From Acidobacteriota bacterium (GTDB lineage: Bacteria; Acidobacteriota; Vicinamibacteria; Vicinamibacterales; UBA8438): a DNA stretch of 64,000 nt. Shown here piece by piece: positions 316 to 59,574 of this stretch. The notes under the pieces are model-generated. The model did no database searches and was not told the DNA's origin. It saw only the letters and a program-made list of their open reading frames with translations. Each line of letters starts with the position of its first letter. Position 1 is the stretch's first letter. A program made the translations under genes and the position numbers. The DNA is taken from assembly GCA_011523845.1 (NCBI GenBank), contig WTFV01000004.1, positions 38,881 through 102,880 on the forward strand, given 5' to 3'.

Positions 316-334
316 TTCCGTCTCCTGCCTCTCA

Positions 335-382: not shown

Positions 383-466
383 CCCTGGCCCGTCGCCGCT
401 CCGCGTCGCGCCGCGGAGGCGGGCCTCCTCGACACGGAGACCTCTGCGTTCCTTCGAGCCGGCGGC

Positions 467-1189: not shown

Positions 1190-1249
1190 GACTACGCCAT
1201 CATACCGCCGCCGGCGCCTGCCAATCGCCGGGCAGGGCGCTCGGCGTGC

Positions 1250-1965: not shown

Positions 1966-2008
1966 CGTAACGTCTGTTCTCTGAAGCATCAAGATGTCAC
2001 GCCGGGCG

Positions 2009-2329: not shown

Positions 2330-2440
2330 CGGTGCCGCCTCGTTGCCTCCTCCGGACAGGATACGACACATCCGCTCGCTGACGACACCGTGCAGGCGTC
2401 GCGGCCCGCCGCCGGACGACCCGTCATGCCGGACTGGCGA

Positions 2441-4291
<1,851 letters not shown>

Positions 4292-4440
4292 CCAGCCATC
4301 GTACTACGCGGCCGCCCCCGCCGCTTTCGGTCCGGAGCAACCCGCCCGGATTCGCCCAGGCACGAACTCGTCGGGAACCGGTGGACGATGATGCGATCGA
4401 GTCGAGTCGTCGGCCCGCGCCTCCGGCGGGTCCCTTCCGG

Positions 4441-4480
4441 GGGATTCCAGGGGGTTCCACGGGTTCCCGGGGTTCCAGGG
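4441..4480. promoter_or_regulatory. four tandem GG(A/T)TTCC decamer-like repeats in the recQ / porin divergent intergenic region
   Basis: gggattccag ggggttccac gggttcccg gggttccagg, with GGTTCC cores at about 4443, 4453, 4462 and 4471 (9-10 nt phasing). The block ends 35 nt upstream of the ATG at 4515. A TATGAT hexamer sits at 4503-4508. Confidence 0.4.
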
Positions 4481-4514
4481 GACACGGCGGTCGGGAAATG
4501 GGTATGATTTCGAG

Positions 4515-5309
4515 ATGAAGAACATCGCGCGCACGCGTGCCGCACGGTTCCGGACCGTGGTCGCGGCGTTTCTGGCGGCCGTGCCGGCCGTCGCCGGGGC
4601 GCAGACCGAGTTCCACTACCAGTACGGCAAGCTCAGCAACCCTTTCGCGCGCACGCGCCAGTTCACGCACATCCTGACCGTGCAACAGGCGTCGAGCTGG
4701 TCGCTCGGCGACAGCTTCGTCTTCATCGACATCCTCGACGACGGCGTCCCGGACGGCTTCAACGACCTGGAGTTCTACGGCGAGTGGTATCCGACGCTGA
4801 GCTTCGGCAGGCTGGCGGATCGGACCGTGGGCGGCGGACCGGTCCGGGACGTTGCGCTGATCGGCGGCATCAACTTCGACGGCGACGCCAACGTCCTCAA
4901 GTGGCTGCCCGGCGCGCGGCTCTCCTGGGACGTGCCCGGCTTCGTCTTCTTCAACACGGACCTGACCGCGTTCATCGATGCCAGCAGCGGTCTCGAACGG
5001 GGCGGCGCGCCCCGGACGAGCGACAGCTTCATGTTCGACGTCAGTTGGGGCGCCGCGTTCGACATCGGCAGCCAGTCGTTCTGGTTCACCGGCCACGCCG
5101 AGTACATCGGGGGCGCGACCAACGAGCTGAACCAGCCGGTGAAGGGGTGGATTCTCGCGCAGCCCCAGCTCGGGTGGGACATCGGCAAGGCGCTGACCGG
5201 CGCCGCCAACCAGCTCTTTCTCGGCGTGGAGTACCAGTACTGGTGGAACAAGCTGGGCGTGGACGACGACGACAACGTTGCCCAGTTGTGGGTGATGTGG
5301 CGCCTGTGA
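4515..5309 (+). CDS. outer-membrane beta-barrel channel, Tsx/OmpK-like family
   Basis: 264 aa. Signal peptide (AAFLAAVPAVAGAQT), alternating beta-strand pattern, FYGEWYPTLSF and a C-terminal aromatic end (LWVMWRL). It resembles nucleoside-channel Tsx/OmpK proteins. The family call is by eye only. Confidence 0.5.
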   Translation: MKNIARTRAARFRTVVAAFLAAVPAVAGAQTEFHYQYGKLSNPFARTRQFTHILTVQQASSWSLGDSFVFIDILDDGVPDGFNDLEFYGEWYPTLSFGRLADRTVGGGPVRDVALIGGINFDGDANVLKWLPGARLSWDVPGFVFFNTDLTAFIDASSGLERGGAPRTSDSFMFDVSWGAAFDIGSQSFWFTGHAEYIGGATNELNQPVKGWILAQPQLGWDIGKALTGAANQLFLGVEYQYWWNKLGVDDDDNVAQLWVMWRL

Positions 5310-5336
5310 CGCCCCGCTGCCGCGCGGGAGCCTGAG

Positions 5337-7883
5337 ATGAACCGAATCGTGACGCAAGCGCTGGATATGCCGAGTACCGGGACCCGGACCATGAAGAGGG
5401 GGTTGCGCCTGGCGGTTCGGGGCTTCCTCGCCCTCGCCGCGCTGCTCACCGTCACGATTACCACGACCTCGGCCACCATGCTCTACAACTCCGCCGTCGC
5501 GCTGCGCGACGAGGCGGAGGCGGCCGCCGTGAACCTGGCCGAGCTGCTGTCGACCAGCTTCGCCGACATCGGCGAGATCTCGCTGGCCAACGTCGCCCGC
5601 ACGCTCGACGCCACGCTCGACGATCAGATGGTCGCCCAGGCCCGCATCGCCGCGCACATGGTCGCCGCGGCGGAGGAGGCGGGGCACGATCCGCCCCGCA
5701 TCATCGAGACCCTCGACGCCATCGTCGCCAACACGGTCCTCGACGAGTTCTGGATCACCGACAGCGTCGGCTTCTCGTACCTCACCAACGTCCGCGACGA
5801 GAACGGGGCGCTCGTGCCCTTCCGGTTCGATCCCGATCCGGCGGTGCAGCCGCAGGCGCACCGGTTCTTCGAGCTGCTCGGATCGGATGTCGACGACGAC
5901 ACCGGCGTGATTACGCAACCGGCGCAGGTCCGGGAGATCGACCAGGAGGTCTACAAGTACGTCGGGGTCGGCGGCGTCGATCAGGAGCGGATCGTGCAGA
6001 TCGGCAACGCGCTGGTCTTCGGCGAGCAGGAGATCCTGACCAACACCTTCACATCCGAGCGTGCCGACGTGTCGGCCGTGGTCGAGGGGATCATCGGCCA
6101 GCACATGCTGGTGCAGGCGCACATCGCCGGTCACTTCGTCGCCGCGGCGGAAGAGGCCGGCTGGTCTCCGGAGGAGATCGAGGGCCGGCTGCGACGCATC
6201 GCCGGTGCGACGGTCATCGGCGAGATCCGGGTCGTGGACGGGGACGGCTCCGTGGCCTACTCCAATCTGCTGCCGCCCCTGGCGGGCGGATCCGCCGCGG
6301 CGGTGCCGTATCTGGACGAAATCGCACCGCTCCTCGATGGCTCGGAGCAGAGCCTCGAGTTCGCGACGGCGCCCCGCGCCTCCGACGGCGAGGTCTACAA
6401 GTACGTCGCGGTCGCCGGCGCCGGCTCGCCGCGGGTCGTGCAGGTCGGCATTCCGATTGAAAGCAGCGCGGGCAACCTGCTCTATTCCGTCTACCAGCGC
6501 GAAGCGGATCTGCTGGTCCAGTCCCGCAATCTCGAGGCCCTCTGGGTCGTCAATCTCGACCGCGAGCTGGCCGCGGCCGCGCCGCGCGCCGGGCAGGCCG
6601 GGGCGGGGACGGTGGAGGCGGCCAGCGTCTTCTCGCGACGGGCGGAAGCGGTCGTGGCCCTCGCCATGGAACAGGAACGGGTGGTCAGCGAGGCCAGCCT
6701 GAGCCTGCTGTCGCCTGCCGAGCGCGGCATCTGGGTCGCCTCGCCGATCGTGAACCCCGGCGAACCCCCGATCGGCGGTCTGGCTCTGGCCGTCAGCCTC
6801 GACGACATCGCGAGCACGGTGCAGGCCGAGGCCTTCAACACCACGCTGATCGCCTTCGTGCTGCTCGGCTTCACGGCCGCCGCCGCGCTCTGGGGAACGC
6901 GGTGGCTGACCCATCCGATCGAGGTGATTGCCTCGGCGGCGCGCCAGGTGGAGGCGGGCAGACAGCCCGACGAGGGCCCGCTCGAAGACGTGATCAAGCG
7001 CACGGACGAGATCGGCAGCCTGGCGCGGGTGTTCGAGGCGATGACGGTGCAGGTCTTCAACCGCGAAGAGCAGCTCGAGATGATGGTGTCGGCGCGGACC
7101 GAGGAGCTCCAGCAGAGCAACCGCAGCCTGCGCGTCGCCCAGCGGGCGCTCGAGCAGGACCTGGAGATGGCCAAGGTGGTGCAGGCCGCCCTGGTCCGCG
7201 AAGGCAACGTGGAGCTGGGCCGTTTCGTGGCCTACGCGAGGATGACGCCCGCGCAGCAGGTGGGCGGCGACTTCGTCGACGTGCTCGAGCCGTCCGGCGG
7301 CAAGCTGTTCTTCACCGTCTGCGACGTCTCCGGCAAGGGCGTGGCGGCGGCCCTCTTCATGGCCGCGTCGCAGGGCGCGATCAATGCCGCGGCGACCCAG
7401 AGTCAGAACGGAGACGTGGGCGCCATCGCCACCGAGGCCAATCGCCGGCTCTGCGGCGAGAACCCGATGGGGCTCTTCGTTACGGGTGTCCTCGGCATCG
7501 TCGATCTCGAGCGCGGCGTCATGCAGTACGTCTGCGCCGGCCACGAGCCGGCGTTTCTCGTGGCCGCGGACGATTCCCGGCGGCCGCTCCCGATGACCGG
7601 CGGGATGGCGATGGGGGTGCTCGACGACTTCGAGTACGAGAGTCGCGAGGAGCAGTTGCGGTCCGGCGACGCGCTGTTCCTCTACACCGACGGCCTGACC
7701 GACGCGGTGAACCTGAGCGGCGAGCTGTTCGGGAAGGAACGGCTGGAGACGACGCTCGACGGCGCGTCGGCGCGCTCGCCCGAACAGATCGTGGACCACG
7801 TCTGGAGCGAGATCCTCAGCTATTCCGCCGGTGCTTCCGCCGCCGACGACATGACCTGTCTGGTCCTGCGGCGCCGCCGGTGA
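5337..7883 (+). CDS. membrane sensor serine phosphatase (SpoIIE/PP2C family, RsbU-like) with HAMP-like linker
   Basis: 848 aa. N-terminal TM, an internally duplicated ~130-aa extracytoplasmic module, a second TM (LIAFVLLGFTAAAALWG), linker and coiled coil. C-terminal PP2C block GGDFVDV...FFTVCDVSGKGVAAALFMA...LFLYTDGLTDA...ADDMTCLVLRR. Start could also be at M19 (5391). Confidence 0.9.
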   Translation: MNRIVTQALDMPSTGTRTMKRGLRLAVRGFLALAALLTVTITTTSATMLYNSAVALRDEAEAAAVNLAELLSTSFADIGEISLANVARTLDATLDDQMVAQARIAAHMVAAAEEAGHDPPRIIETLDAIVANTVLDEFWITDSVGFSYLTNVRDENGALVPFRFDPDPAVQPQAHRFFELLGSDVDDDTGVITQPAQVREIDQEVYKYVGVGGVDQERIVQIGNALVFGEQEILTNTFTSERADVSAVVEGIIGQHMLVQAHIAGHFVAAAEEAGWSPEEIEGRLRRIAGATVIGEIRVVDGDGSVAYSNLLPPLAGGSAAAVPYLDEIAPLLDGSEQSLEFATAPRASDGEVYKYVAVAGAGSPRVVQVGIPIESSAGNLLYSVYQREADLLVQSRNLEALWVVNLDRELAAAAPRAGQAGAGTVEAASVFSRRAEAVVALAMEQERVVSEASLSLLSPAERGIWVASPIVNPGEPPIGGLALAVSLDDIASTVQAEAFNTTLIAFVLLGFTAAAALWGTRWLTHPIEVIASAARQVEAGRQPDEGPLEDVIKRTDEIGSLARVFEAMTVQVFNREEQLEMMVSARTEELQQSNRSLRVAQRALEQDLEMAKVVQAALVREGNVELGRFVAYARMTPAQQVGGDFVDVLEPSGGKLFFTVCDVSGKGVAAALFMAASQGAINAAATQSQNGDVGAIATEANRRLCGENPMGLFVTGVLGIVDLERGVMQYVCAGHEPAFLVAADDSRRPLPMTGGMAMGVLDDFEYESREEQLRSGDALFLYTDGLTDAVNLSGELFGKERLETTLDGASARSPEQIVDHVWSEILSYSAGASAADDMTCLVLRRRR

Positions 7884-8083
7884 CGCCTCTCGCGGCCGGC
7901 AGGGAGGCGACCGGGGTTCGCTTCGGAGGCGGGTGGAGTCTGCTAGAGTAGGGCGTCCCTCCAGGAGCTTGCGCCGCAGAACGCAACGACGTGAGTTCTG
8001 CGGCTAGAGGTCCTGGGCGGTGGGGGCTCGGGCCGAACACGGAGCCTGCGACGGGTTCGGCGGCGCGAGCAGGGCACGACCTC

Positions 8084-8512
8084 ATGGCTGACGAACTCGA
8101 CGTGACGATCCCGGCCCGGCTGTCGGAGGTGCGCGAGTTGTCGGGCATGGTGGAGGCCTTCGGGGACGCCAACGGCCTGCCGGATCCGAAGGTGTTCGTC
8201 ATCAACCTGGCGCTCGACGAGTTGATCACCAACACGGTCACGCACGGTCTCGAAGACAAGGCCGACGCCGAGATCCGGATCCGGATGCAGGTCGATGGCG
8301 GCACGTTGATTCTGGTGATGGAGGACAACGGTCAGCCGTTCGACCCGACGCAGGACACCAACGCCGACGTCACGTCTTCGCTCGAGGAGCGGGCCATCGG
8401 CGGCCTGGGGCTGCACCTGGTGAAGAGCTTCGCCGATCGCATCACCTACGAGTTCGTGGGAGGCCGGAATCGACTGACGATGGAGCACGACCTCGCAAGG
8501 GCGGCGGAATGA
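8084..8512 (+). CDS. anti-sigma regulatory factor / serine kinase (RsbW/SpoIIAB-like HATPase), copy 1
   Basis: Start re-set to ATG 8084 (MADELDVTIPARL...). LALDELITNTVTHG (N box), EDNGQPFDP and GGLGLHLVKSFAD (G boxes). Confidence 0.85.
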   Translation: MADELDVTIPARLSEVRELSGMVEAFGDANGLPDPKVFVINLALDELITNTVTHGLEDKADAEIRIRMQVDGGTLILVMEDNGQPFDPTQDTNADVTSSLEERAIGGLGLHLVKSFADRITYEFVGGRNRLTMEHDLARAAE

Positions 8513-8555
8513 GGCTTCCAGATCCGATCAAACTCTACGTGCAGGTGGTATCCCG

Positions 8556-8894
8556 ATGAACATCGAAGTAGCCGAGGAACGGGACGGCGACGCACTGGTG
8601 CTGCTGCCGGTCGGCCGTCTCGACAGTGCGAATGCCCGCGCGTTCGAGTCGATCGTCATGGAACGCGTCGATGGCGGCGAGCAGCGGTTGATAGTCGACT
8701 TCAGTCGTCTCGGCTTCATCAGCAGTTCCGGGATGCGCGTCCTGCTGATGGCTGCGAAGAAGCTGCACGCAGGTCAGGGGAAGCTGGTGCTGTGCGCGAT
8801 GCCGGACCATATCCACGAGGTGTTCCGGATCAGCGGCTTCGACCAGATCATCCCGATCCGGGACACGCGCGAGTCCGCGCTGGGCGAGGTCTGA
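8556..8894 (+). CDS. STAS-domain anti-sigma-factor antagonist (RsbV/SpoIIAA-like), copy 1
   Basis: 112 aa. VLLPVGRLDSANARAFE...LIVDFSRLGFISSSGMRVLLMAAKK...VFRISGFDQIIPI, with the phosphorylatable Ser in the FISSSG motif. Confidence 0.9.
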   Translation: MNIEVAEERDGDALVLLPVGRLDSANARAFESIVMERVDGGEQRLIVDFSRLGFISSSGMRVLLMAAKKLHAGQGKLVLCAMPDHIHEVFRISGFDQIIPIRDTRESALGEV

Positions 8895-8996
8895 CGTCCG
8901 GCTGACGACGGCCCCATCCCCTGTTCGATGGCGCTGCGCCTTGTGTGACGACAGCGCCGCTGGTACAGTTGCGCGTTCTCTCGGGAGGGCACGTTC

Positions 8997-9431
8997 GTGG
9001 CGATGACGGATGAACTGCGCGTCTCGGTGTCGCCGAGGTTGTCGGCGGTACGCAGTCTGGCGCAGATGGTGGAGGAGTTCGGCGACGCCAACGAGCTGCC
9101 GGATCAACAGATCTACATGATCAACCTGGCGCTCGACGAACTCATCACGAACACGGTGAGCTACGGCCTGCGGGGCGTCTCCCGTCCGAAGATAGAGATT
9201 ACGCTCCAGGTCAGCGAGAACAGGCTGGTCCTGACCATGGAGGACAACGGCCGGCCGTTCGATCCGACCCGGAACACGAATCCCGATCTGTCGTCGCCGG
9301 TCGACGAACGACCGGTCGGCGGTCTGGGCCTGCATCTGATCAAGACGTTTGCCGACCGGGTCGACTACGAGTACTCGGACGGGAAGAACCGGCTGGTCAT
9401 GGAACACGATCTCACGCCGGCGGCCCGGTGA
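8997..9431 (+). CDS. anti-sigma regulatory factor / serine kinase (RsbW-like), copy 2
   Basis: 144 aa (GTG 8997 or ATG 9003). LALDELITNTVSYG, EDNGRPFDP, GGLGLHLIKTFAD. A clear paralogue of 8084..8512. Confidence 0.85.
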   Translation: MAMTDELRVSVSPRLSAVRSLAQMVEEFGDANELPDQQIYMINLALDELITNTVSYGLRGVSRPKIEITLQVSENRLVLTMEDNGRPFDPTRNTNPDLSSPVDERPVGGLGLHLIKTFADRVDYEYSDGKNRLVMEHDLTPAAR

Positions 9432-9452
9432 CGGGAGCCGGCCAGTGACGAG

Positions 9453-9803
9453 GTGCATCGTATGGATATCGAAGTCGCGGAAGAACGCAACGACGAGGTG
9501 CTGGTGCTCTTGCCCGTCGGACGGCTGGACAGCGGCAACGCCCGCTCGTTCGAGTCCGTCGTGATGGATCACGTCAGCAGCGGCGAGCGGCGCCTGGTCG
9601 TCGATTTCAGCCGCCTCGATTTCATCAGCAGCTCGGGCATGCGGGTGCTGCTCATCGCCGCCAAGGCGCTGAAGGCGGGCGAAGGGACGCTCGTGCTCTG
9701 TTCCATGAAGAACCACATCGAGGAGGTCTTCCGGATCAGCGGCTTCGATCGCATCATTCCCATCAAGGAATCCCGCGAAGCGGCCCTTGCCGCCTCGTCC
9801 TAG
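9453..9803 (+). CDS. STAS-domain anti-sigma-factor antagonist, copy 2
   Basis: 116 aa. VLLPVGRLDSGNARSFE...LVVDFSRLDFISSSGMRVLLIAAKA...VFRISGFDRIIPI. A paralogue of 8556..8894. Confidence 0.9.
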   Translation: MHRMDIEVAEERNDEVLVLLPVGRLDSGNARSFESVVMDHVSSGERRLVVDFSRLDFISSSGMRVLLIAAKALKAGEGTLVLCSMKNHIEEVFRISGFDRIIPIKESREAALAASS

Positions 9804-9826
9804 AAGTCTGCGCCGACTGAGGCGGA

Positions 9827-10483
9827 TCACGCCTTGTAGGCCCTGATCACGTCGAGCATGGCCTGTTCCTCCCGGTCCCACGCGGTCTGAATCTCCTGCA
9901 GGGCCCCCGCGGCGGTCGGGGCCTGCCTGGCGAGCGCGCGGTTCTGCGGCAGCAGCAATCCCCGTGCGGCCGCGTGATCGAGGAACTCGAACAGGTGGTC
10001 GTAGTAGCCGTCGATGTTGGCGAAGCAGCACGGCTTCTCGTGCAGCTCCAGGGGGCGTTGCGACCAGCAGAGGGCCTCGAGGATCTCCTCCAGGGTGCCG
10101 AACCCGCCGGGCAGTGCGATGCAGCCTTGCGACAGCTCCTGCATCAGGTGCTTGCGCTCGTGCATCGTGTCGACTTCGAGGAGACGGCTGAGCCCTTCGT
10201 GGGCGAGCTCCTGATACGAGAGTTGCCGGGGTACCACCCCGGTGACGAAGCCTCCGTTCGCCAGGACGGCGCCCGCGAGGACGCCCATCAGTCCCACCCG
10301 GGCCCCGCCGTACACCAGCCCGATGCCCTCGGCCGCCATCAGCCGGCCCAGCGCGTCGGCTTCGTCGAGGTAACGCTGTTCCTTTCCCAGGTTGCCTCCC
10401 AGGTAGACGCAGATGTTCTTTCCGCTGGGTGGCCCCGCGGGAGCACGGTCGCCGCGCGCCTTCTCGTTCCCGACCTTCTGCAT
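9827..10483 (-). CDS. LOG-family (TIGR00730-type) nucleotide 5'-monophosphate nucleosidase / cytokinin riboside 5'-monophosphate phosphoribohydrolase
   Basis: 218 aa. VYGGARVGLMGVLAGAV and the PGGFGTLEEILE motif. Confidence 0.85.
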   Translation of the reverse strand: MQKVGNEKARGDRAPAGPPSGKNICVYLGGNLGKEQRYLDEADALGRLMAAEGIGLVYGGARVGLMGVLAGAVLANGGFVTGVVPRQLSYQELAHEGLSRLLEVDTMHERKHLMQELSQGCIALPGGFGTLEEILEALCWSQRPLELHEKPCCFANIDGYYDHLFEFLDHAAARGLLLPQNRALARQAPTAAGALQEIQTAWDREEQAMLDVIRAYKA

Positions 10484-10505
10484 CGTCTCGGATCCGGCTG
10501 GCCGG

Positions 10506-11780
10506 CTAGTCTCGTTCCGGCATGAGAACGAACTCGGGATAGGCGTCGATACCGAGCTCGGTGACGTCCTGTCCCATCTCCTCGACCTTGCGGGAAACGC
10601 GAACGCCCATCGTCTTTTCCAGCGCCACCCACGTCAGCCAGGAGGTCACGAACGCGAACGCGCCGATGGAGACCATGCCGAGGAGCTGCACGCCGATGTC
10701 GGCGCCCGCCGCGATGACCGTAGCCATGGTACCCCAGGCGCCGGCGAAGAGGTGCGCGGGCACCGCCCCGACCACGTCGTCCACCTTCAGTCTCTCCAGC
10801 AGCTTGATGGCGGCGGTGCAGATGATGGCGCCGACCGCGCCGATCAGGATCGCCCAGTAGTGGCCGGTGATGTCGGGCCCTGCCGTGATCGAGACGAGGC
10901 CGGCGATGGCGCCGTTCAGTCCGGCCAGCAGATCGACCCGCCCGAGAATGGGCCGCGACACGGCGATTGCCGCGATGACGCCGGCCGCGCCCGCCAGGTT
11001 CGTGTTGACCAGCACGTGGCTCATCGCCAGCACGTCGGCGGCGCTTCCCAGGGCGAGCTGCGACCCGCCGTTGAAGCCGAACCAGCCGAACCAGAGAATG
11101 AAGACGCCCAGGGTCACCACCGGGATATTGGACGGAGGAGTGCTGGTGACGGTGCCGTCGGCGCGGAACTTGTTGTGTCGCGGTCCCACGACCAGCGCGC
11201 CGGCCAGCGCGGCGGCGCCGCCGGTGCCGTGCACGATGGTCGATCCGGCGAAGTCCTGGAAACCCATCTGGCTGAGCCAGCCGCCGCCCCACGTCCAGGC
11301 GCCGACGATCGGGTAGATGAGGCCGGTCAGCACCAGGGTGAAGACGAAGAACGTCCAGAGCTTGACCCGCTCCGCCAGCGCGCCGGAGACGATGGACGCG
11401 GCGGTCGCCACGAAGACCATCTGGAAGAACCAGTCGGACATGACGGCGTAGTCGGTCGCGATCACCGCCTCCCGCGCGCTCTCGGCGCCCGCCAGCAGCG
11501 CGAGCTCGTCGGACGACGGTTCGCGGAGGAACCTGAAGGAGCCGATCAGGCTGCCCACGTCGACGTACATCAGGTTGTAGCCGATGAGGTAGAAGGCGAT
11601 TCCGGCAACCGAATACAGGCCGATGTTCTTCAGGCAGATCACCGATGCGTTCTTGGTGCGGACCGAGCCGGACTCGAGCATCGTGAAGCCGGCCGCCATC
11701 CACATCACCAGCGCGCCCCAGAGCAGGAACGAGAACGTGTTGAAGATGAACTGAAGCTCGTCGCTCGACAACTCGGTCAT
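10506..11780 (-). CDS. amtB: ammonium transporter (Amt family)
   Basis: 424 aa polytopic protein. FLLWGALVMWMAAGFTMLESGSVRTKN...DFAGSTIVHGTGGAAALAGALVVGPR...GFNGGS...VGAVPAHLFAGAWG are the classic Amt signatures. Confidence 0.95.
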   Translation of the reverse strand: MTELSSDELQFIFNTFSFLLWGALVMWMAAGFTMLESGSVRTKNASVICLKNIGLYSVAGIAFYLIGYNLMYVDVGSLIGSFRFLREPSSDELALLAGAESAREAVIATDYAVMSDWFFQMVFVATAASIVSGALAERVKLWTFFVFTLVLTGLIYPIVGAWTWGGGWLSQMGFQDFAGSTIVHGTGGAAALAGALVVGPRHNKFRADGTVTSTPPSNIPVVTLGVFILWFGWFGFNGGSQLALGSAADVLAMSHVLVNTNLAGAAGVIAAIAVSRPILGRVDLLAGLNGAIAGLVSITAGPDITGHYWAILIGAVGAIICTAAIKLLERLKVDDVVGAVPAHLFAGAWGTMATVIAAGADIGVQLLGMVSIGAFAFVTSWLTWVALEKTMGVRVSRKVEEMGQDVTELGIDAYPEFVLMPERD

Positions 11781-26950: not shown

Positions 26951-27123
26951 CGCTAGAGCTGCCGTCGCTGTTGGCAGCCTTCGAATATACCCCGACCCGC
27001 AACGCCCCGAGTCCGACATGTCCGACATCGATTGTACGCGTGCCGAGCAGGCATGGCGGTGACGTTCATCTCCATGAGCGCCGTCAGCCACCGATAGGGG
27101 CCGATTTGGACGATCTGCCACGT

Positions 27124-27666
27124 CTACGCAGCCCGTTCGGCGTCGAATTCGCGCAAGGCGCCCGGAACCGCGTCGACGAAGCGCGCGGCGCGCGTGTACA
27201 GGGCATGAATCTCTTCCGTCGTCTTCTCCAACGGGAAGGTACCGAAATCCTGATGTACGAGGCGATTCCGGTCCCTTCCGAGTTCGAGGAACGCCCGGAC
27301 CGAGGCGTCGAGCTCGTCGTCGGCCTTGATCCTCTCCTTCATGAAGTCGCGGAAGTCCGTTCCGAACAGACCGAAGAAGCTGTTGGCGTTGCTCGTGTCC
27401 CACTGGAACCACGTGTGGTACTGACGGGTCACCGCCTTGTTGCGGACCAGCGCAGCAACCAGCGCGTTGCGGTTCGTTGCGTCTTCGACGAACGATATGA
27501 CCGTCTCCGTCATTCGGCGCTCGAAGTAGCTCGCGGATGCGAGCAGCAGTGACTTCCGGAAATTCTCGTCCGCGACGGCACGCAACGACACCTCGCCGGC
27601 TTCTTCGAGGATGGAGAGCAGGCTCGCAAAGCTCTCGTGCAGCTCGTCGACCACGGTACCAGGCAC
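27124..27666 (-). CDS. HEPN-superfamily protein (putative RNase) partnered with DUF262
   Basis: 180 aa, apparently all-helical. Rx4H motif RNRLVH in ELGRDRNRLVHQDFG near the C-terminus. Starts 21 nt downstream of the DUF262 gene. Local GC about 55-58% against about 70% in the flanks. Confidence 0.55.
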   Translation of the reverse strand: MPGTVVDELHESFASLLSILEEAGEVSLRAVADENFRKSLLLASASYFERRMTETVISFVEDATNRNALVAALVRNKAVTRQYHTWFQWDTSNANSFFGLFGTDFRDFMKERIKADDELDASVRAFLELGRDRNRLVHQDFGTFPLEKTTEEIHALYTRAARFVDAVPGALREFDAERAA

Positions 27667-27687
27667 GCCGTCCGCTCCCTTTGCCCG

Positions 27688-28899
27688 TCAGAGGCCGCCG
27701 ACGATCTCGCGGGATCTGGACAGACGTGTCTTGACGTTCGCCGTGCTCGTGGTGTTGGAAGCTGCAGCTGCGGCGAACTCACGATCCTTCCTCAGCGCCC
27801 GCAGGCGGTCCAACGACAGCTCGCCGTCGACCCGGCGCCGCTCGGCGAAGGCTTGTTCGCAGACGGCCGTGAAGGCAGCCTCGTACAGCATTATGTTGAA
27901 ACGACTGTCGTGAGGGTTCCGGAAGGCGTCCTCGGGCAGGCTACGGCATGCGTCCAGAAAAGACCGGAACAGCCCCTTGAGGTAATCGTTCTGGTCGCTG
28001 TCGTGCGTCCTGCACTTCTTCGAGAAGCGGTTCAGGAACCTGAGCATCGACGGTGCGTACGTGTCGCCGTCCACGAGCATGGCGAAGCCGCGAAGGAGGA
28101 CCTCGACATCCTTGAGGTGGAGATCCGGCGGGGCACCGAGGAGCGCACGCCACCTCGATTCGGCATTCATGTCGTACAGCATGGTGTAGAAGCAGGAGTG
28201 GTACATGCTGGTACGGATCTCCTGGGGTCGGAGATTCATCCCGCCTGTGTTCAGTCGATTGAAGATCTCGAATATCGACGAGTCGTCGTCGGACGGCGAC
28301 ACCTGCTTCACGATGATGTTGCGGAGCGGACGCAGGTCGAACTGGGACTGGTACTCGCCGAGAGAATCGTAGTCGAAGCCGTCGAACCTGCTCGCCCGGT
28401 CGGAGAACCGTCCCGAAAGGTGCAGCTTGAATGGCCGAAAGTACTTGTCGTCGTTGAGCACGTCCTCCGGAATGTGTCCGAGGTCGTCGAAGACGGTCCG
28501 CAGTTCCCGGCGGCGTTCCTGGCGCGGGAACCGCCGCTTGATGAAGTAGTAGATGGACATCAGCCGCTGTTGGCCGTCGATGACGAGGAATCGGTTGCGG
28601 GATTCTTCGTACAGGAACAACTGCGGCACGGGCAGGCCGAGGATGAGCGACTCGATGAGCCTGGACGCGCGGGGAAGATCCCAGACGAAGTGTCTCTGAA
28701 ACCCGGGAATCCTGACGGCGCCCCGGTCGATGAAGCTGCCGAGCGTCACCAGGTTGAAGTCGTTCGGGGAGGCGGTGATGTCGTACTGGTCGATGTGGAT
28801 GCCGCCGTCGTCCTCGGCATCGTCCGCGAACCACGTGTTCGGCTGATTGTCCGTTTCCGGCTCCACCTTGTCGATGCTGTGTACATCCATCTTCTGCAT
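27688..28899 (-). CDS. DUF262 (ParB/Srx-fold, GmrSD N-terminal-like) protein
   Basis: 403 aa. IPGFQRHFVWDLPRASRLIESLILGLPVPQLFLYE...FLVIDGQQRLMSIYYF (DGQQR motif) and FEIFNRLNTGGMNLRPQEIR. No DUF1524/HNH domain. Confidence 0.85.
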   Translation of the reverse strand: MQKMDVHSIDKVEPETDNQPNTWFADDAEDDGGIHIDQYDITASPNDFNLVTLGSFIDRGAVRIPGFQRHFVWDLPRASRLIESLILGLPVPQLFLYEESRNRFLVIDGQQRLMSIYYFIKRRFPRQERRRELRTVFDDLGHIPEDVLNDDKYFRPFKLHLSGRFSDRASRFDGFDYDSLGEYQSQFDLRPLRNIIVKQVSPSDDDSSIFEIFNRLNTGGMNLRPQEIRTSMYHSCFYTMLYDMNAESRWRALLGAPPDLHLKDVEVLLRGFAMLVDGDTYAPSMLRFLNRFSKKCRTHDSDQNDYLKGLFRSFLDACRSLPEDAFRNPHDSRFNIMLYEAAFTAVCEQAFAERRRVDGELSLDRLRALRKDREFAAAAASNTTSTANVKTRLSRSREIVGGL

Positions 28900-28918
28900 T
28901 CCGCCCGCCGTCCGGGGT

Positions 28919-30606
28919 CGTGGAGGACTCTATCCATGGTACCGGAGATCGGTGGTCTCGACAGCAGCCAGTGCGCCGACCGCGAAGGTCCGCGGGTACA
29001 GCTTCTCGGAGTACCAGAGCTTCGCGAAGTACAGCCCGATCGGGGTGGTCCGGACGCGTCGTCCACCATCGGTGGCGTCGATCAACCAGCTCGCACCGCG
29101 AGCCAACGCCTCGTCGAGGCTGTGGACCGCGGCGGCCCGCGGCAACCGGCGATACGTCGCCAAGGCCGAGACCGCCAGCGCCGTCTCCTCGATGGACGGC
29201 GAAACGCCCGGGCCGCCGCCCCAGCCGCCGTCGCCACCTTGCGCGTCGACGAGCCAACGCGTTGCCCGCTGCTCGGACGCCGCGATCGTCTCGACGTCGG
29301 AAAGGACGGCGAGCCCCTCCAGCACCCGCGCCGTGCCGTAGACCGGGTTGACCTCGTCCGGGGCGCCCTGGTTCCCGAACCACAGGGGAATCCACGATCC
29401 ATCCGGTTGCTGCGCCCGCTCGAGAAACCGGACGGCGCGTCCGGCGGCGCGCTCGGTGCGGGTCCGGAGCGCGTCGGGCAGCGCGGGTCGCCAGACGGTC
29501 CAGGCCCGCAGCGTGTGGGCGGTCAGGTCGGGACTGCTGCGGTCGAACGGCAACGCGCCCCAGCCGCGGCAGAACGTCGGAATGCCGCCGTCGGCGTTCT
29601 GCAGGTCGAGGAGCCAGCGGATCCCGGCGCAGGCGGCGTCCAGATGCTCGGCGTCTTCAGCGCCGAGGGAGTGGAGAGCGAGCAGCGCTCCCGGGGTGTC
29701 GTCGGCGTCCGGCACGCCGCCGGGCAGGTCGGTCCAGGCCCAGCCGCCCGGGTCGGCGTCCGTGGAGGACTCTATCCATGGTACCGGAGATCGGTGGTCT
29801 CGACAGCAGCCAGTGCGCCGACCGCGAAGGTCCGCGGGTACAGCTTCTCGGAGTACCAGAGCTTCGCGAAGTACAGCCCGATCGGGGTGGTCCGGACGCG
29901 TCGTCCACCATCGGTGGCGTCGATCAACCAGCTCGCACCGCGAGCCAACGCCTCGTCGAGGCTGTGGACCGCGGCGGCCCGCGGCAACCGGCGATACGTC
30001 GCCAAGGCCGAGACCGCCAGCGCCGTCTCCTCGATGGACGGCGAAACGCCCGGGCCGCCGCCCCAGCCGCCGTCGCCACCTTGCGCGTCGACGAGCCAAC
30101 GCGTTGCCCGCTGCTCGGACGCCGCGATCGTCTCGACGTCGGAAAGGACGGCGAGCCCCTCCAGCACCCGCGCCGTGCCGTAGACCGGGTTGACCTCGTC
30201 CGGGGCGCCCTGGTTCCCGAACCACAGGGGAATCCACGATCCATCCGGTTGCTGCGCCCGCTCGAGAAACCGGACGGCGCGTCCGGCGGCGCGCTCGGTG
30301 CGGGTCCGGAGCGCGTCGGGCAGCGCGGGTCGCCAGACGGTCCAGGCCCGCAGCGTGTGGGCGGTCAGGTCGGGACTGCTGCGGTCGAACGGCAACGCGC
30401 CCCAGCCGCGGCAGAACGTCGGAATGCCGCCGTCGGCGTTCTGCAGGTCGAGGAGCCAGCGGATCCCGGCGCAGGCGGCGTCCAGATGCTCGGCGTCTTC
30501 AGCGCCGAGGGAGTGGAGAGCGAGCAGCGCTCCCGGGGTGTCGTCGGCGTCCGGCACGCCGCCGGGCAGGTCGGTCCAGGCCCAGCCGCCCGGGTCGGCG
30601 TCCGTG
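28919..30606. repeat. perfect tandem duplication, period 842 bp (copy 1 28919..29760, copy 2 29761..30602, plus shared cgtg 30603..30606)
   Basis: Line-by-line comparison shows 28919..29764 identical to 29761..30606, and I found no mismatch. The same 4 nt (cgtg) sits at the left end, the junction and the right end. Identical translated ORFs appear twice in the track (for example 29082..29402 = 29924..30244). Confidence 0.95.
28930..29764 (-). pseudogene. duplicated promoterless 3' fragment of the terpene cyclase gene (residues about 391-667)
   Basis: Encodes DADPGGWAWTDLPGGVPDADDTPG...AVETTDLRYHG*, identical to the C-terminus of 29772..31775. It has no start of its own. The period is 842 (not a multiple of 3), so it is out of frame with the intact copy. 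Confidence 0.8.
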
Positions 30607-31775
30607 TAGACATGCCGCTCGCGGTACTGCTGGTTGAGAAGCCAGCGGCTCAGGGCGGCACGATCGGCGGGCCGGACGAGGTCGTGCCAATCGGGCCGGC
30701 GCGCCAGCGCGTTCACGCTGAGGGTCGTGACCCAGGTGGCGAGGTTGGTGTCGATGGGCCAGCTCCCGTCGGCGCGCACCGAACGTTCCAGAAACGCCGC
30801 GCCGCGCTCCACCACGAGGTGCGCCGATTCCCCGGCGGCGACCAGGCTCATGACGACGAAGCTCGTCAGCGGCGTCGCCTCCAGGAAGCCGCCGCCGGAC
30901 GGCTGAATCGCTTCCAGCCGGCGCAGGGTACGGGCGCGTACCGCCCGTCGCAGAAGGCGGGCCGCCGGATTGCGAGAGGGTCGCTGCCGGTGGCGTGCCT
31001 GCCCGATGGCGATCAGGGCCGGCAGGGCGTAGCTGACCACCGGGAGCCGCAGCCAGCGGTACCAGGACGGCGGAACCGCGGCCAACTCGAACGGGAGCTG
31101 CGGAACGTGCCGCCAGCCGCTGCCGATGGTCCCGCTGCCGTCGCCCTGCCCACCCTGGTCGTCGCCGGCGCGGAAGCCGGTGCTTCCTTCCTTGCCGGCC
31201 CGGCCTCCTTTCGGCGAGTGACCGCCGCGTCGTGCCTCGGCGCCGCGCCCGTTGGCGTCCAGGAGACCCGCCAGCGCGAGCACGGTCAGAATAGGCACGG
31301 AGAACGTGCGGTCCTTGCCGTAGCGCCGGCTGATCGTGTCGGCGAGCGGCCGCGGTTCCAGGCTGCCGGCGGCGCGGCGCATCCAGTCGCGCACGCGATC
31401 GAGCGCCGCGACGCAGGGCGGGTCGTCCGTCCCGCCGATGGCAAGCGCCGCCCAGCAGAGGGCGGTGGTGCTGACATTGCTGGGACTGTCGGTGGTGTCG
31501 CCCCAACCGCCGTCCCCGTTCTGGGTCCGGGTCAGCCATCCGACGCCGCCGCTGACGAGGGCGCTGTGGGCGGCCGGTGGGCGATGACGGTCGACCAGCG
31601 TGAGCGCGATGACCGCGACGGCCGTGGACAAGGCCGACGACGACAGCTCTCCGGTCCAGTGGCCGTCCGCGGTGCGCGCGGCGAGCAGGCTGTCGGTCAG
31701 CCGGTCGAGCGTTGCACGCCACTCTGCACGGTCGGTCGGCGCCGACGCTGCCGGCGTCATGGCAGCGGCTCCCAC
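29772..31775 (-). CDS. class II terpene cyclase, squalene-hopene cyclase family
   Basis: 667 aa. DxDD-type acid motif (GVPDADDTPGALLAL). Multiple QW-like repeats (AQQPDGSWIPLWFG, TQNGDGGWG, AQGGDGGWGG, LQNADGGIPTF). N-terminal DGHWTGELSSSALSTAVAVIAL. Start 31775 or 31760. Confidence 0.85.
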   Translation of the reverse strand: MGAAAMTPAASAPTDRAEWRATLDRLTDSLLAARTADGHWTGELSSSALSTAVAVIALTLVDRHRPPAAHSALVSGGVGWLTRTQNGDGGWGDTTDSPSNVSTTALCWAALAIGGTDDPPCVAALDRVRDWMRRAAGSLEPRPLADTISRRYGKDRTFSVPILTVLALAGLLDANGRGAEARRGGHSPKGGRAGKEGSTGFRAGDDQGGQGDGSGTIGSGWRHVPQLPFELAAVPPSWYRWLRLPVVSYALPALIAIGQARHRQRPSRNPAARLLRRAVRARTLRRLEAIQPSGGGFLEATPLTSFVVMSLVAAGESAHLVVERGAAFLERSVRADGSWPIDTNLATWVTTLSVNALARRPDWHDLVRPADRAALSRWLLNQQYRERHVYTDADPGGWAWTDLPGGVPDADDTPGALLALHSLGAEDAEHLDAACAGIRWLLDLQNADGGIPTFCRGWGALPFDRSSPDLTAHTLRAWTVWRPALPDALRTRTERAAGRAVRFLERAQQPDGSWIPLWFGNQGAPDEVNPVYGTARVLEGLAVLSDVETIAASEQRATRWLVDAQGGDGGWGGGPGVSPSIEETALAVSALATYRRLPRAAAVHSLDEALARGASWLIDATDGGRRVRTTPIGLYFAKLWYSEKLYPRTFAVGALAAVETTDLRYHG

Positions 31776-31815
31776 CGCCGGGTTCCTGCGAGCCCGTGGT
31801 GCAGCCGCGCGTGAC

Positions 31816-31890
31816 AGCCCGTGGTGGAACCCCGCGTAGCACCGAGAGCGGCGAGGCGCCCCGACACCCGGTACCCGGCGTGAGGAGGGC
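31816..31890 (+). repeat. ~75-nt extragenic repeat element, copy A
   Basis: agcccgtggtggaaccccgcgtagcaccgagagcggcgaggcgccc... Its reverse complement matches 56715..56783: the 46-nt core has 2 mismatches, and the flanks align with one 9-nt indel. Located in the spacer between the PFTB-like gene and the cyclase gene. Confidence 0.85.
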
Positions 31891-31907
31891 GCATATTGGG
31901 CATATGC
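31891..31907. promoter_or_regulatory. AT-rich perfect palindrome GCATAT-N5-ATATGC upstream of the cyclase gene
   Basis: gcatat tgggc atatgc, about 115 nt upstream of the cyclase start, directly abutting repeat copy A. It is a conspicuous low-GC island in a GC-rich spacer. Confidence 0.35.
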
Positions 31908-32034
31908 AACCGACGAACAACGCGGTCAGGCGGGATGCATCGCCGCTCGAATGCGGCGGGGACTCTCGCCACGGGCCGGTAACGCCGATAGTGACCGGGC
32001 AGTCGCACGACAAGGCGCGACAGGGGCTGCACGC

Positions 32035-32913
32035 TCACAGGCTCAGGTGTCCCAGGGCGAGCAGGGCATAGAAGGTGTACTCGCAGTCCTGCACGTCGTC
32101 GCCCCAGCTCCCGTAGAAGCCGCCGGAGTTGGTCCAGAGGCTGTCGATGAAGTCGAGGCAGGGTTCCTTGATCGGTTCGAGCGGGGCATGCGCCCCGGCC
32201 AGCGCGTGCAGCGCCGTGGCGGTCGAGAGCAGATCGGGGAGCGGCGTCGACGGCGACGCGCAGAACCCGCCCGCCGGCGCGTGGCGAGCCCGGAGCCACT
32301 CGATCGCTTCACGATCCGCCGGCCGCGAAAGGCGTCGCTGGATCGTTACCGCCGCGGCGGTCGGCGGCGTCAGGCCCGCCGGTACGCCGGGCTGGTTGGC
32401 GTATCCGCCGTCCCCGGCGCGCAACGCGGCCAAGCAGTCCAGGAGCCGGGCGGGATCGTCGAGCGTCGCGCCCAGGTCCTCGTACGCCCCCAGGGCCAGA
32501 AAGCAGCCGTACGCGGTGCCGTGGCTCGCCCGGTCCGTCGGGCTGTAACCGCCGTCCGGTGTGCGGTAGGTTTCCAGCCGTTCCAGCAGCGGCTCCGCGG
32601 GCGCCTCGTCGGCGGAGCCGATGTCGGCCCAGCAGCGAGCGAGGCAGGCGGTGTGCACGAAATCCAGTGCGGTGGGGTCCTCGTGGCGTTCCAGATAACG
32701 CCGCACCTCGACGACCGGCAGGTCGCGCCGGAGAGCGGTGAGCGCCTCGAGGCCGAAGACGGTGTAATAGAGGTCGCTGGCGCCGTCGCGATCCTGGAAG
32801 CCGCCGTCGGGATTCAGCCGGGAGGAGAGAAAGCCCGCCGTCAGGTCTGCCGCGTCACCCAGCAACGTCGGCGACAGCCTGGCTACCTGCAGCATTTCGA
32901 GCCTCGAACTCAC
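32035..32913 (-). CDS. prenyltransferase / squalene-oxidase repeat (alpha-alpha toroid, PFTB-like) protein
   Basis: 292 aa with five repeats of the xDGGF/Y type: LNPDGGFQD, RTPDGGYSP, RAGDGGYAN, HAPAGGFCA, TNSGGFYGSWG. The start (32913 or 32895) overlaps the upstream gene end by 41-59 nt. Confidence 0.75.
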   Translation of the reverse strand: MSSRLEMLQVARLSPTLLGDAADLTAGFLSSRLNPDGGFQDRDGASDLYYTVFGLEALTALRRDLPVVEVRRYLERHEDPTALDFVHTACLARCWADIGSADEAPAEPLLERLETYRTPDGGYSPTDRASHGTAYGCFLALGAYEDLGATLDDPARLLDCLAALRAGDGGYANQPGVPAGLTPPTAAAVTIQRRLSRPADREAIEWLRARHAPAGGFCASPSTPLPDLLSTATALHALAGAHAPLEPIKEPCLDFIDSLWTNSGGFYGSWGDDVQDCEYTFYALLALGHLSL

Positions 32914-34600
32914 TGCACCAGCCCTGAATCTCGACGCTGAAGATCTTGCCGATGACCCGGCGGAGCAGCCCCTTGAGGCTGGGGTTGGTCAGGCCGGGCA
33001 GACAACGTATCGCTTCTTCCTTGTAGCCTTCCATCAGGCGCCGGCTGCGGTCCGCGGCGTCGAAGCGGGACAGCAGCTCGCGCACCTCGTCGGAGCGGCC
33101 GTCGAGCGCCGGCTCCCGGCGCCACGCCGCCTCCAGGGCGGCCCGCGCCTCCGGCTCCGACTTGGCCTGCTCGTAGCCTACGGCGAGCGGCAGCGACGGG
33201 CGGAGCGCGGCCACGTCGTCCGGGGCATCGGCGGACGGCTCGAAGTCGTCGAGGTCGTCCCGGATCTGGTAGGCGATGCCGAGCGCGTCACTGTATGCGC
33301 GCAGCTTCTCGAATACGTCCTCGCCGGCGCGGGCGCAGGCCGCTCCCAGCTCGAGCGCCACACCGAACGCGGGCGCGGTCTTCTGCCGGAAAATCTGCAG
33401 CACCTGCTGCGAGCTGAGGGGACGGGGACTGCGCGCCCAGGCCAGCTCCTCTCCCTGTCCGAGGCAGAGGGTGCGGTGGCCGCGGGCCGCAATCGCAGTC
33501 ATCCCGGCGCGGATCTCGGGCGCGAAATCGCTCTCCGCGAGCAACCGGTAGCCCTCGCCGACCAGGAAGTCACCGACGTTGAGCGCCGCGGGAATGCCGT
33601 GCGAGGCGTGCAGCGTGGGCTCGCCGTAGCGTCGCGCGTCGCCGTCCTCGATGTCGTCGTGGACCAGCGAGGCCTTGTGGAAGCACTCCACCGCGACGGC
33701 GACCTTGCGCAGCGCGTCCGGCGGCGCCGCGTGCGGATCGTCCTGCAGCGCGTGGTGCACGCAGACGGTGAGGAAGGGCCGCCAGCGCTTGCCCGCCCGG
33801 GTGAGCTCGGCCCGCGCCAGCGTCTCCGTCTCTCCTTCCGGCGGTCCGCCGAACAGCGTGTCGAGCGCCGCGGGCTCGAACCAGCTCTCGACGTCCCGCC
33901 GCAACGCGTCGAGATCGAGCCGGCGCGTCCGGTCGTCGCTCGTGGCGTGGATGAAGTCCCAGACCCACTCGACGTCGACCCCGGTGTCCTTGCAGTCGTC
34001 CTGCAGCAGCGGAATCGCCACGCCCGGAATCGCCGCCGCCTCCATGTAGGGGAAGGCCCGCTCCAGCACCGAGAGGCAGCTCACGCCGACGATCGCCTCG
34101 ATCTTGCCGGTCTGGATCAGCGCCATCACCAGCGCCGAGCCCTCGGCGACGAGCACCGCGTAGCCGAGCTTCTCCGCTTCTTCCTGCAGATCCTGGATCG
34201 TGCACAGGCCGCACTGCTTGCACAGCAGGCCGAACTCGTCGAACGGGGCGGGGCAGCGGTCCTCCACCCGCAGGCACTTGGGCAGCAGCAGCAGGCGCCG
34301 GTCGTAGGGGACGGCAGCCAGGTGCTCGCGCCACGTCTCGTTGCCGAGCAGCACGCCGACGTAGTCGACGTACTTCGGATCGATGCCGTGCCCGCGCACG
34401 ATCTCCTCGGACCGCGCCTGCAGCTCGTCCAGGACCAGCGGCGGCGTGATCTCGCTCTGCCGCGCCGCGACGTAGGCCTGAACCTGCCGCAGCATCACCT
34501 CGCGCTCCGACCGGGTCTGCGGAATGTTCTCCTGCGGCGGCCGCATGGCCACGGGCGGCACGGCGCGCGGGAGCGAAACGACCGGCAGTTGATAGCTCAC
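32855..34600 (-). CDS. fusion protein: N-terminal DUF116 (Cys-rich) domain + C-terminal polyprenyl diphosphate synthase
   Basis: 581 aa. N-terminal half LLLLPKCLRVEDRCPAPFDEFGLLCKQCGLCTIQDLQEEAEKLGY...VGVSC is DUF116-like. C-terminal half has both Asp-rich motifs: LVHDDIEDGDARRYG (DDxxD) and YQIRDDLDDF. Confidence 0.8.
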   Translation of the reverse strand: MSYQLPVVSLPRAVPPVAMRPPQENIPQTRSEREVMLRQVQAYVAARQSEITPPLVLDELQARSEEIVRGHGIDPKYVDYVGVLLGNETWREHLAAVPYDRRLLLLPKCLRVEDRCPAPFDEFGLLCKQCGLCTIQDLQEEAEKLGYAVLVAEGSALVMALIQTGKIEAIVGVSCLSVLERAFPYMEAAAIPGVAIPLLQDDCKDTGVDVEWVWDFIHATSDDRTRRLDLDALRRDVESWFEPAALDTLFGGPPEGETETLARAELTRAGKRWRPFLTVCVHHALQDDPHAAPPDALRKVAVAVECFHKASLVHDDIEDGDARRYGEPTLHASHGIPAALNVGDFLVGEGYRLLAESDFAPEIRAGMTAIAARGHRTLCLGQGEELAWARSPRPLSSQQVLQIFRQKTAPAFGVALELGAACARAGEDVFEKLRAYSDALGIAYQIRDDLDDFEPSADAPDDVAALRPSLPLAVGYEQAKSEPEARAALEAAWRREPALDGRSDEVRELLSRFDAADRSRRLMEGYKEEAIRCLPGLTNPSLKGLLRRVIGKIFSVEIQGWCSEFEARNAAGSQAVADVAG

Positions 34601-34771
34601 GGGAATCTCTTCCGTTGGTGTTCAGCGTTCTCGGTCGGTGACTCGCGCCGCCGGGTGCCAGTAGAAAGAACCCCGCCAGCGTCGTCTGCTTCGCGTACGA
34701 TTCTCACGGCGCAGACTCCTGGTGTGCCGCCCCGGAGACACACAACACAACTCGGTCCGCCCCGTGGTGAG

Positions 34772-34812
34772 GAATTCCTGGCGTCTCCGCCGTGTTGAGC
34801 GGCCAGGAATTC
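34772..34812. promoter_or_regulatory. 11-bp perfect inverted repeat (gaattcctggc / gccaggaattc) with 19-nt loop
   Basis: 34772-34782 pairs with 34802-34812. It lies 26 nt downstream of the radical-SAM stop (34838), inside the only sizeable spacer (237 nt) between the radical-SAM stop and the DUF116-polyprenyl synthase start. No U-tract follows on the transcribed strand. Confidence 0.4.
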
Positions 34813-34837
34813 TGCATCGAACTTGAGAGGCAGGACA

Positions 34838-36031
34838 CTAGCTGTAGGCTCCGAATCCGAAGAACCAGTGCTTCTTGGCGAAGGCGTAGGCCCAGTGTTC
34901 CTCCGGGATCTCGTTCCCCGGGTCGTACTGGCTGCTCCGCGGCGTGAGCTGCGCCAGCTCCGCGGACGCCGTCTGCCGCCGGGTCGTGTCCCTGGCGCCG
35001 TGGCGCTCGACGAGATCGCGGACGAGATCCGGCCGCTCCAGCACGATGCAGCCGCGCGTGGTCCGTGCCGCCGTCTCCCGAAAGTCCTTGAGGAACGATG
35101 AGCTCGTCATGGTCTCGTAGACGCTCGGCCGATCATAGACGGTTTCGGTCGCGAACTGGATGATCGGGCACGGCTCGATGTCGCCGTAGGGGCTGATGTG
35201 GTGGCTCACCCCGGTTGCCATCGGGCACAGCGCCTGCCCCTCGTCGTCCCAGTACGCGTCGACGATGGCGATGGGCAGCTTCGCGCGCATGCGGACGATG
35301 AACCGGCGCACGCGGAGCACCTCCTCGGGCGTCAGTGCGATCTCCGCCGTCGGCTTCGGGCCGACGACCCGGTAGGTGTGGAACCAGGCGTAGTGCACGC
35401 CCATGTCGATGAGCCGCCGCAGCCACGACTCCTGCACGAGGTCGTCGATGTTCGTCTTGCAGACGCTGGTGGCCACGCCGGTGACCAGACGGTTCCGGGT
35501 GCATGCCTCGAGTCCCGCCAGCGACTTGTCGAGAACGGCGGTCCGGCCGCGGCGCTCGTCGCTCACCACCGAGGTGCCCTCGATGCTGACCAGCGGCGTG
35601 ACGTTGCCGAGCCGGCGCAGCTCGGCCGCCCGCGCGTCGTCGATGAGATGCCCGTTGGTGAAGAGCTGGAAGTAGCAGTCCGGGTGCGCGGCGAACAGGT
35701 CGAACAGCTCGGGGTGCAGCAGCGGCTCGCCCCCCAGGATGCCGAAGTAGCTGTTGCCGTGCCGCTTGGCGTCGCCGACGATGCGGTTCAGCTCGTCGAT
35801 CTCGATCTTCCGGCTCGGCGCCTCGACGTCGACCCAGCAGCCCTGGCAGCGCAACTGGCAGCCCGAGATCACCGAGATGAACAGGAACGGGGGGAAGTGC
35901 TCGCCCCGCTTGATCCGCTGCTTGTAGAGCTGCACCGAGCGGACGCCCTTGACGCCCATGTTCCAGACCAGCTTGCGCAGCGCGCGCGGGTCCGGCTCGG
36001 TGAGCATCCGTCTGGCCAGTCCGAGCACCAC
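34838..36031 (-). CDS. radical SAM protein
   Basis: 397 aa (GTG 36031 or ATG 36007). FLFISVISGCQLRCQGCWV gives the CX3CX2C cluster motif. Then GILGGEPLL, and C-terminal Cys residues (CPMATG...IEPCP). The N-terminal layout resembles HpnH/MoaA-like enzymes, but the subfamily was not identified. Confidence 0.8.
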   Translation of the reverse strand: MVLGLARRMLTEPDPRALRKLVWNMGVKGVRSVQLYKQRIKRGEHFPPFLFISVISGCQLRCQGCWVDVEAPSRKIEIDELNRIVGDAKRHGNSYFGILGGEPLLHPELFDLFAAHPDCYFQLFTNGHLIDDARAAELRRLGNVTPLVSIEGTSVVSDERRGRTAVLDKSLAGLEACTRNRLVTGVATSVCKTNIDDLVQESWLRRLIDMGVHYAWFHTYRVVGPKPTAEIALTPEEVLRVRRFIVRMRAKLPIAIVDAYWDDEGQALCPMATGVSHHISPYGDIEPCPIIQFATETVYDRPSVYETMTSSSFLKDFRETAARTTRGCIVLERPDLVRDLVERHGARDTTRRQTASAELAQLTPRSSQYDPGNEIPEEHWAYAFAKKHWFFGFGAYS

Positions 36032-56714: not shown

Positions 56715-56783
56715 GCCCTTCTCACGCCTTGTCGGACGGGCGCCTCGCCGCTCTCGGTGCGACGCGGGGTTCCGCCACGGGCT
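56715..56783 (-). repeat. ~75-nt extragenic repeat element, copy B (inverted relative to copy A)
   Basis: gcccttctcacgccttgtcggacgggcgcctcgccgctctcggtgcgacgcggggttccgccacgggct is the reverse complement of 31816..31890 apart from 2 core mismatches and one indel. It sits between the convergent ends of the Zn-ADH (56706) and the FAAL-fusion gene (56785). Confidence 0.85.
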
Positions 56784-56784
56784 G

Positions 56785-59574
<2,790 letters not shown>

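Follow-up and report, generated by a model that had tools for sequence, protein, structure and literature searches.

Tandem duplications that carry 0–4 nt of microhomology at the junction without any flanking repeat have been attributed to template switching or end joining (preprint 10.64898/2026.05.22.727201). Citing Andersson and Hughes (2009), the same preprint describes tandem duplications in bacteria as inherently unstable, because recombination between the copies deletes them. The kind of event is already known, and bacteria constantly gain and lose small tandem duplications whose junctions have microhomology. In the stretch of DNA analyzed here (64 kb, hereafter called the window, with 70% G+C and no N), a segment of 842 nt covering the 3' end of a terpene cyclase gene is present twice in tandem. 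We consider, with a probability of roughly 60%, that this segment represents a very recent in vivo tandem duplication, which was made without homologous recombination and was present in at least a substantial part of one sample's cells.

When the window was compared with itself, which the earlier note had suggested as a check, positions 28919–29764 and 29761–30606 were found to be identical over 846 nt with 0 mismatches and a period of 842, just as had been claimed from reading the bases. At an offset of 842, the longest unbroken run of identity is exactly 28919–29764, corresponding to an 842-nt unit plus a 4-nt overlap. Repeat finders recovered the same 842-nt pair, and no second long exact repeat was found within the 64-kb window. 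An exact repeat of 846 nt cannot arise by chance. The two units are arranged head-to-tail (28919–29760 and 29761–30602) with one novel junction, and the tetranucleotide CGTG, reported in the note at both breakpoints and at the junction, was found in all three places: namely, the left edge (28919–28922), the junction (29761–29764, a microhomology to which no strand is assigned), and the right edge (30603–30606). The proximal copy (29761–30602, minus strand) supplies the intact cyclase gene with its 3' end and extends 11 nt beyond the stop codon. The distal copy (28919–29760, minus strand) is the extra one and is composed of the 11-nt 3' flank, the copied stop codon (28930–28932), and 276 C-terminal codons of the cyclase. 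With the stop codon of the cyclase gene (TAG, minus strand) at 29772–29774, the junction lies 8–11 nt past the stop, again as described in the note. Across the two units, the junction 27-mer reads GGTCGGCGTCCGTGGAGGACTCTATCC, and the normal boundaries of the unit in the single-copy allele read CCGGGGTCGTGGAGGAC and GCGTCCGTGTAGACATG.

An origin by homologous recombination between repeats was excluded, because no long direct repeat flanks the unit; namely, repeat searches of the window found no flanking direct repeat of 35 bp or longer. Neither a mobile element, a recombinase gene, nor terminal repeats were found at the unit, and an origin by a mobile element was also excluded with no such genes present. 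Among 200,000 random breakpoint pairs placed 842 nt apart in the same sequence, junction microhomology of at least 4 nt had a probability of 0.026, and the 4-nt microhomology is hence modest evidence as an above-chance signal. Extended homology at the breakpoints (a shared CCGCCCG... stretch in the blast overrun) was considered as well but was dropped with P = 0.065 against random pairs. The note had proposed a microhomology-mediated slippage or template switch; the 4-nt overlap at the junction bears out the microhomology, whereas slippage does not stand as the unique route, as end joining leaves the same footprint. The footprint thus fits a homology-independent event, which may be template switching, slippage, or end joining, and separates none of them.

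The steps of formation that we infer from the footprint, which is the part observed, would begin with a clone of Vicinamibacterales (Acidobacteriota) having one unit in its normal allele. A DNA end or a nascent strand ending ...GCGTCCGTG inside the cyclase gene would then be re-joined or re-primed at the CGTG situated 842 nt behind it and 11 nt beyond the stop codon of the cyclase, and the segment would thereby be copied a second time. The resulting order would be the intact cyclase, its stop codon, 8 nt, the junction, an out-of-frame fragment encoding the last 276–277 residues, and the unchanged DUF262–HEPN gene pair. The perfect 842-nt repeats would in turn be a substrate for homologous recombination back to the single-copy allele. 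Because such recombination restores the single-copy allele, zero divergence and rarity are to be expected; in other words, identical copies that are absent elsewhere are what a young duplication should look like.

The single-copy allele was indeed found in public assemblies. At least six public contigs carry a gene for the identical 662-aa cyclase, and five of these were retrieved: a 132.6-kb scaffold from ENA ERZ23487589 (L081) and contigs from JGI 3300033057 (L082), Logan SRR10694908 (L083), ENA ERZ23488010 (L084), and ENA ERZ27234777 (L085), each of which has a single unit. Over up to 14.8 kb, every base of the five contigs is equal to that of the window, save that there is one unit instead of two, and their sole apparent mismatches to the window represent overrun of the alignment at the junction. 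Each of these five contigs has the 34-mer opening the unit a single time, and none of the 86 related loci compared, the five among them, contains the junction 27-mer. The 34-mer gave 0 hits in metagenome_contigs, a collection in which these samples are evidently not included. In the single-copy contigs (5/5), the cyclase stop is separated from the DUF262 gene by 39 nt if the latter starts from ATG at 28890 and by 30 nt if it starts from ATG at 28899; accordingly, the unduplicated state deduced in the earlier note, with the DUF262 start at 28899 about 30 nt behind the cyclase stop, is seen on real contigs. These five and the other assemblies of the same clone possibly share read sets among themselves or even with the source of the window, in which case the presence of the duplication would be a matter of the pipeline used.

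Contigs of at least seven assemblies from four public sources (L081–L094) were identical or near-identical to the window, with 0–6 substitutions and no indel over tens of kb, and one clone of Vicinamibacterales therefore recurs across samples. Additional same-clone contigs among them match the window at 1–11094 and 36809–58819 with no indel and 0–6 substitutions.

The comparison was extended to related genomes, as the note had also recommended, and the unit was single not only in the same-clone contigs but also in more distant Vicinamibacterales. Relatives of the cyclase were found in metagenome-assembled genomes of Vicinamibacterales (Acidobacteriota), with the best species-representative match having 84% amino-acid identity, and the 3' end of the cyclase gene was present once in all of the 12 relative loci (L001–L012). 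In L001 and L012, the nearest other species with DUF262, the DUF262 gene is directly downstream of the cyclase gene, while L002–L010 are without DUF262 and have a single copy of the unit. The pair of DUF262 and HEPN_RiboL-PSP genes (27124–28899 in the window) is located between the cyclase gene and an iron alcohol dehydrogenase (Fe-ADH) gene in the window, L001, and L012. Furthermore, different remnants of DUF262 abut the cyclase end in L002 (approximately 10011–10071, 61 nt) and L005 (approximately 9782–9862, 81 nt), and no remnant was detected in L003 and L004, both of which are without DUF262. Since L002 and L005 keep different remnants, at least two independent deletions of the putatively defensive DUF262–HEPN module at the 3' side of the cyclase gene would be implied.

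The duplicated state, on the other hand, is recorded only on what is evidently the source contig of the window (110,526 bp), which is deposited in both NCBI and IMG; all evidence for it comes from a single assembly, and the junction was seen in no other sequence compared. Such a restriction to one contig is also what would be expected from an artefact of assembly or library preparation in a single-copy organism: namely, an unmerged overlap of contig ends, gap closing, or chimeras formed by in vitro template switching during amplification. The single copy in all the other same-clone assemblies and the zero divergence between the two units would agree with this explanation, and template switching in vitro likewise leaves short microhomologies. 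We regard an artefact as possible but less likely than a real duplication. At the junction, the copies overlap by 4 nt and not by a k-mer length (i.e., tens of bases), there are no Ns, and arbitrary contig ends would share microhomology of at least 4 nt only 2.6% of the time. No mark of an unmerged overlap or gap closure (Ns, a k-mer overlap, or nearby structural errors) was found, while an origin from chimeric reads would be compatible with the junction; random chimeric reads, however, would seldom reach the coverage that an assembler needs. Also, the source assembly is accurate elsewhere, because no indel was found against independent contigs over 1–11094 and 22930–58819, and the duplication is the sole structural difference found in about 47 kb of the window.

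As reasoning about assemblers based on the de Bruijn graph, furthermore, a loop of this kind needs reasonably abundant junction reads, which favours a real variant, possibly in part of the population. The same loop would be formed in the graph if the junction were real but belonged to another structure, i.e., at least three units reduced to two by a short-read assembler or a small circular or excised copy. This possibility appears very unlikely to us, given that no terminal repeats, recombinase gene, or mobile element suggest excision and that the unit has no complete gene on which dosage selection could act.

Regarding the genes involved, the cyclase gene is encoded on the minus strand at 29772–31760 (662 aa from ATG at 31760) and is of the squalene-hopene-cyclase-like class II terpene cyclase type, with the DADD motif at residues 404–407. 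Its longest open reading frame starts from GTG at 31775 (29772–31775, 667 aa), and this 662/667-aa frame is whole; the preservation of an intact cyclase gene, as stated in the note, is thus confirmed. The public gene calls start the cyclase from ATG at 31760 (662 aa) and DUF262 from ATG at 28890 (400 aa). Exact-protein look-ups with the GTG-start cyclase and the 403-aa form of DUF262 accordingly gave no matches, because the public calls use other starts, and the ATG-start cyclase was matched. Both SQHop_cyclase_N and SQHop_cyclase_C of Pfam were detected with 72 and 132 bits, respectively, against cut-offs of about 26, and DADDT of the cyclase aligns with the catalytic DVDDT (D374–D377) of 1gsz. 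The NCBIfam models were not reached: the cyclase scored 86 bits for hopene_cyclase (TIGR01507, equivalog; cut-off 431) and 129 bits for squalene_cyclas (TIGR01787; cut-off 323). Judging from these profile scores, the protein is a divergent class II terpene cyclase of the SHC/OSC superfamily that falls below the hopene-cyclase cut-offs. The name "terpene cyclase" given in the note is right in this sense, because the superfamily domains are present and the scores are far under the NCBIfam hopene-cyclase cut-offs.

Compared with the squalene-hopene cyclase of Alicyclobacillus acidocaldarius (PDB 1gsz/2sqc), the cyclase in the window similarly has both SQHop_cyclase domains, an aligned DxDD motif, and three QW-like motifs, but differs in having a glycine-rich low-complexity insert of about 40 residues and low NCBIfam scores. 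It also differs in its neighbours: in place of the classic hpn genes, there are genes for a radical SAM enzyme and for a DUF116–polyprenyl synthase fusion. The insert, which is rich in glycine and arginine (GRGAEARRGGHSPKGGRAGKEGSTGFRAGDDQGGQGDGSG), is located at residues ~175–215 (31100–31260 of the window, minus strand). Nucleotide alignments to several relatives of the cyclase break at this insert, and it is therefore variable or absent in them.

Upstream of the cyclase gene are genes for a 286-aa protein with a weak prenyltransferase-like match, the DUF116–polyprenyl synthase fusion, and the radical SAM enzyme. Together with the cyclase, they constitute a conserved cluster on the minus strand at 29772–36031 (radical SAM, DUF116–polyprenyl synthase fusion, 286-aa protein, and cyclase). 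Relatives of the cyclase with about 50% identity are present in Planctomycetota and Verrucomicrobiota. The cluster may serve an uncharacterized terpenoid pathway and not classic hopanoid synthesis.

Downstream of the duplication, the first gene is an NsnA-like DUF262/GmrSD_N gene (27688–28899, minus strand; 403 aa, or 400 aa from ATG at 28890). Its product matched NsnA of PADLOC at 4.6e-54 over profile positions 35–379 of 385, which is near full-length, and also PD-T4-2_A of PADLOC (4e-38) and GmrSD_N of Pfam (5.8e-29). The gene fits the profile of a DUF262/GmrSD-type defence protein, and a putative role in defence is suggested. Its partner is a HEPN_RiboL-PSP gene (27124–27666, minus strand, 180 aa), assigned on the basis of a Pfam match on the identical gene of L081/L083, and the iron alcohol dehydrogenase gene comes after it.

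The part of the cyclase repeated in the distal copy begins, with the microhomology included, at Thr391 in the numbering from GTG (Thr386 from ATG) and contains DADD at residues 409–412 (404–407 from ATG). Because 842 mod 3 is 2, this fragment does not share the frame of the upstream cyclase gene. The downstream out-of-frame fragment with DADD that the note had described is thereby recognized as a C-terminal piece of 276/277 codons, with its frame shifted and the motif inside. The fragment of the cyclase is no stand-alone domain. Within the fragment copy, there is an open reading frame of 261 aa on the minus strand (28930–29715), which starts with GTG at 29715 and stops at 28930, and the public entries for the source contig (110,526 bp; NCBI and JGI/IMG) list it as a gene. 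No recognizable ribosome-binding site was found for this 261-aa frame, and it is probably not a functional gene. A chimeric frame of 435 aa (28930–30237) results from the duplication but has no credible start, and seven other candidate reading frames over the fragment were absent from the protein collection.

If the very recent duplication is real, its consequences would be small. The duplication leaves the coding sequence of the cyclase as it was, together with the 8 nt directly behind its stop codon. The sequence upstream of the DUF262 gene is also identical for about 860 nt, as the distal copy reproduces the former flank. As judged from the sequence, the duplication is expected to be nearly neutral, because the cyclase is intact and about 860 nt upstream of DUF262 are unchanged. 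A scan of 27000–32200 for promoters and terminators found nothing resembling a terminator and a single weak promoter-like site, which is within the DUF262 coding region. Co-transcription of the cyclase and DUF262 genes is plausible, because this region has no terminator-like site and the gap in the single-copy state is 30–39 nt. If they are co-transcribed, the duplication would lengthen the transcript by 842 nt of RNA that is probably not translated. By means of such RNA, the duplication might even act as a selected reversible switch that lowers read-through into the DUF262–HEPN genes, i.e., phase variation by tandem duplication; we consider this highly improbable. Were it true, a potentially costly defence-like module would be damped, and recombination between the copies would restore the original state. 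Otherwise, the duplication has little biological weight, with no whole gene broken or amplified. Its value is rather in annotation, where the public 261-aa "gene" is a duplicated fragment and there is no second cyclase. Also, if real, it would provide a clean natural example, with the two alleles known to the base in an uncultured clone that is otherwise identical.

Other repeats were noticed in the window. A 52-nt sequence is present twice in inverted orientation with a 92% match (31810–31861 and 56738–56789); the first site precedes the cyclase start by about 50 nt, and the second is between two convergent genes. This repeat was seen only in the same-clone contigs, folds no better than shuffled sequence, and has no Rfam match; Rfam and tRNA scans of the window as a whole also gave no matches. 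At 8084–9761, furthermore, there are two pairs of diverged direct repeats (72–75% identity, spacing of about 906–919 nt), which represent tandem paralogous pairs of anti-sigma-factor-like (HATPase_c_2) and STAS genes as seen in L091. The region 8084–9761 is an old duplication of a gene pair, in contrast to the exact one of 842 nt.

When the locus is set beside known systems, the duplication resembles artefacts of contig joining or gap closing in draft assemblies in that the copies are exact and occur in only one assembly of the clone, but it differs from them in its 4-nt overlap, the absence of Ns, and a contig that is otherwise colinear and free of indels. With RecA-dependent duplications (e.g., those between rRNA operons, IS elements, or REP sequences), it shares a direct tandem repeat that can collapse by recombination; unlike in those cases, no long repeat flanks the unit in the window. 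It is also like the bacterial tandem duplications made without homologous recombination in its head-to-tail order, its 4-nt junction microhomology, the absence of a flanking repeat of at least 35 bp, its perfect copy, and its rarity in the population, in agreement with the class as presented by the preprint (10.64898/2026.05.22.727201) and by the review of Andersson and Hughes (2009) cited there. In contrast to that class, however, the unit in the window is small and without a whole gene, so that the usual selection for gene dosage is inapplicable, and it was found in an uncultured soil- or marine-type population of Acidobacteriota and not under laboratory selection.
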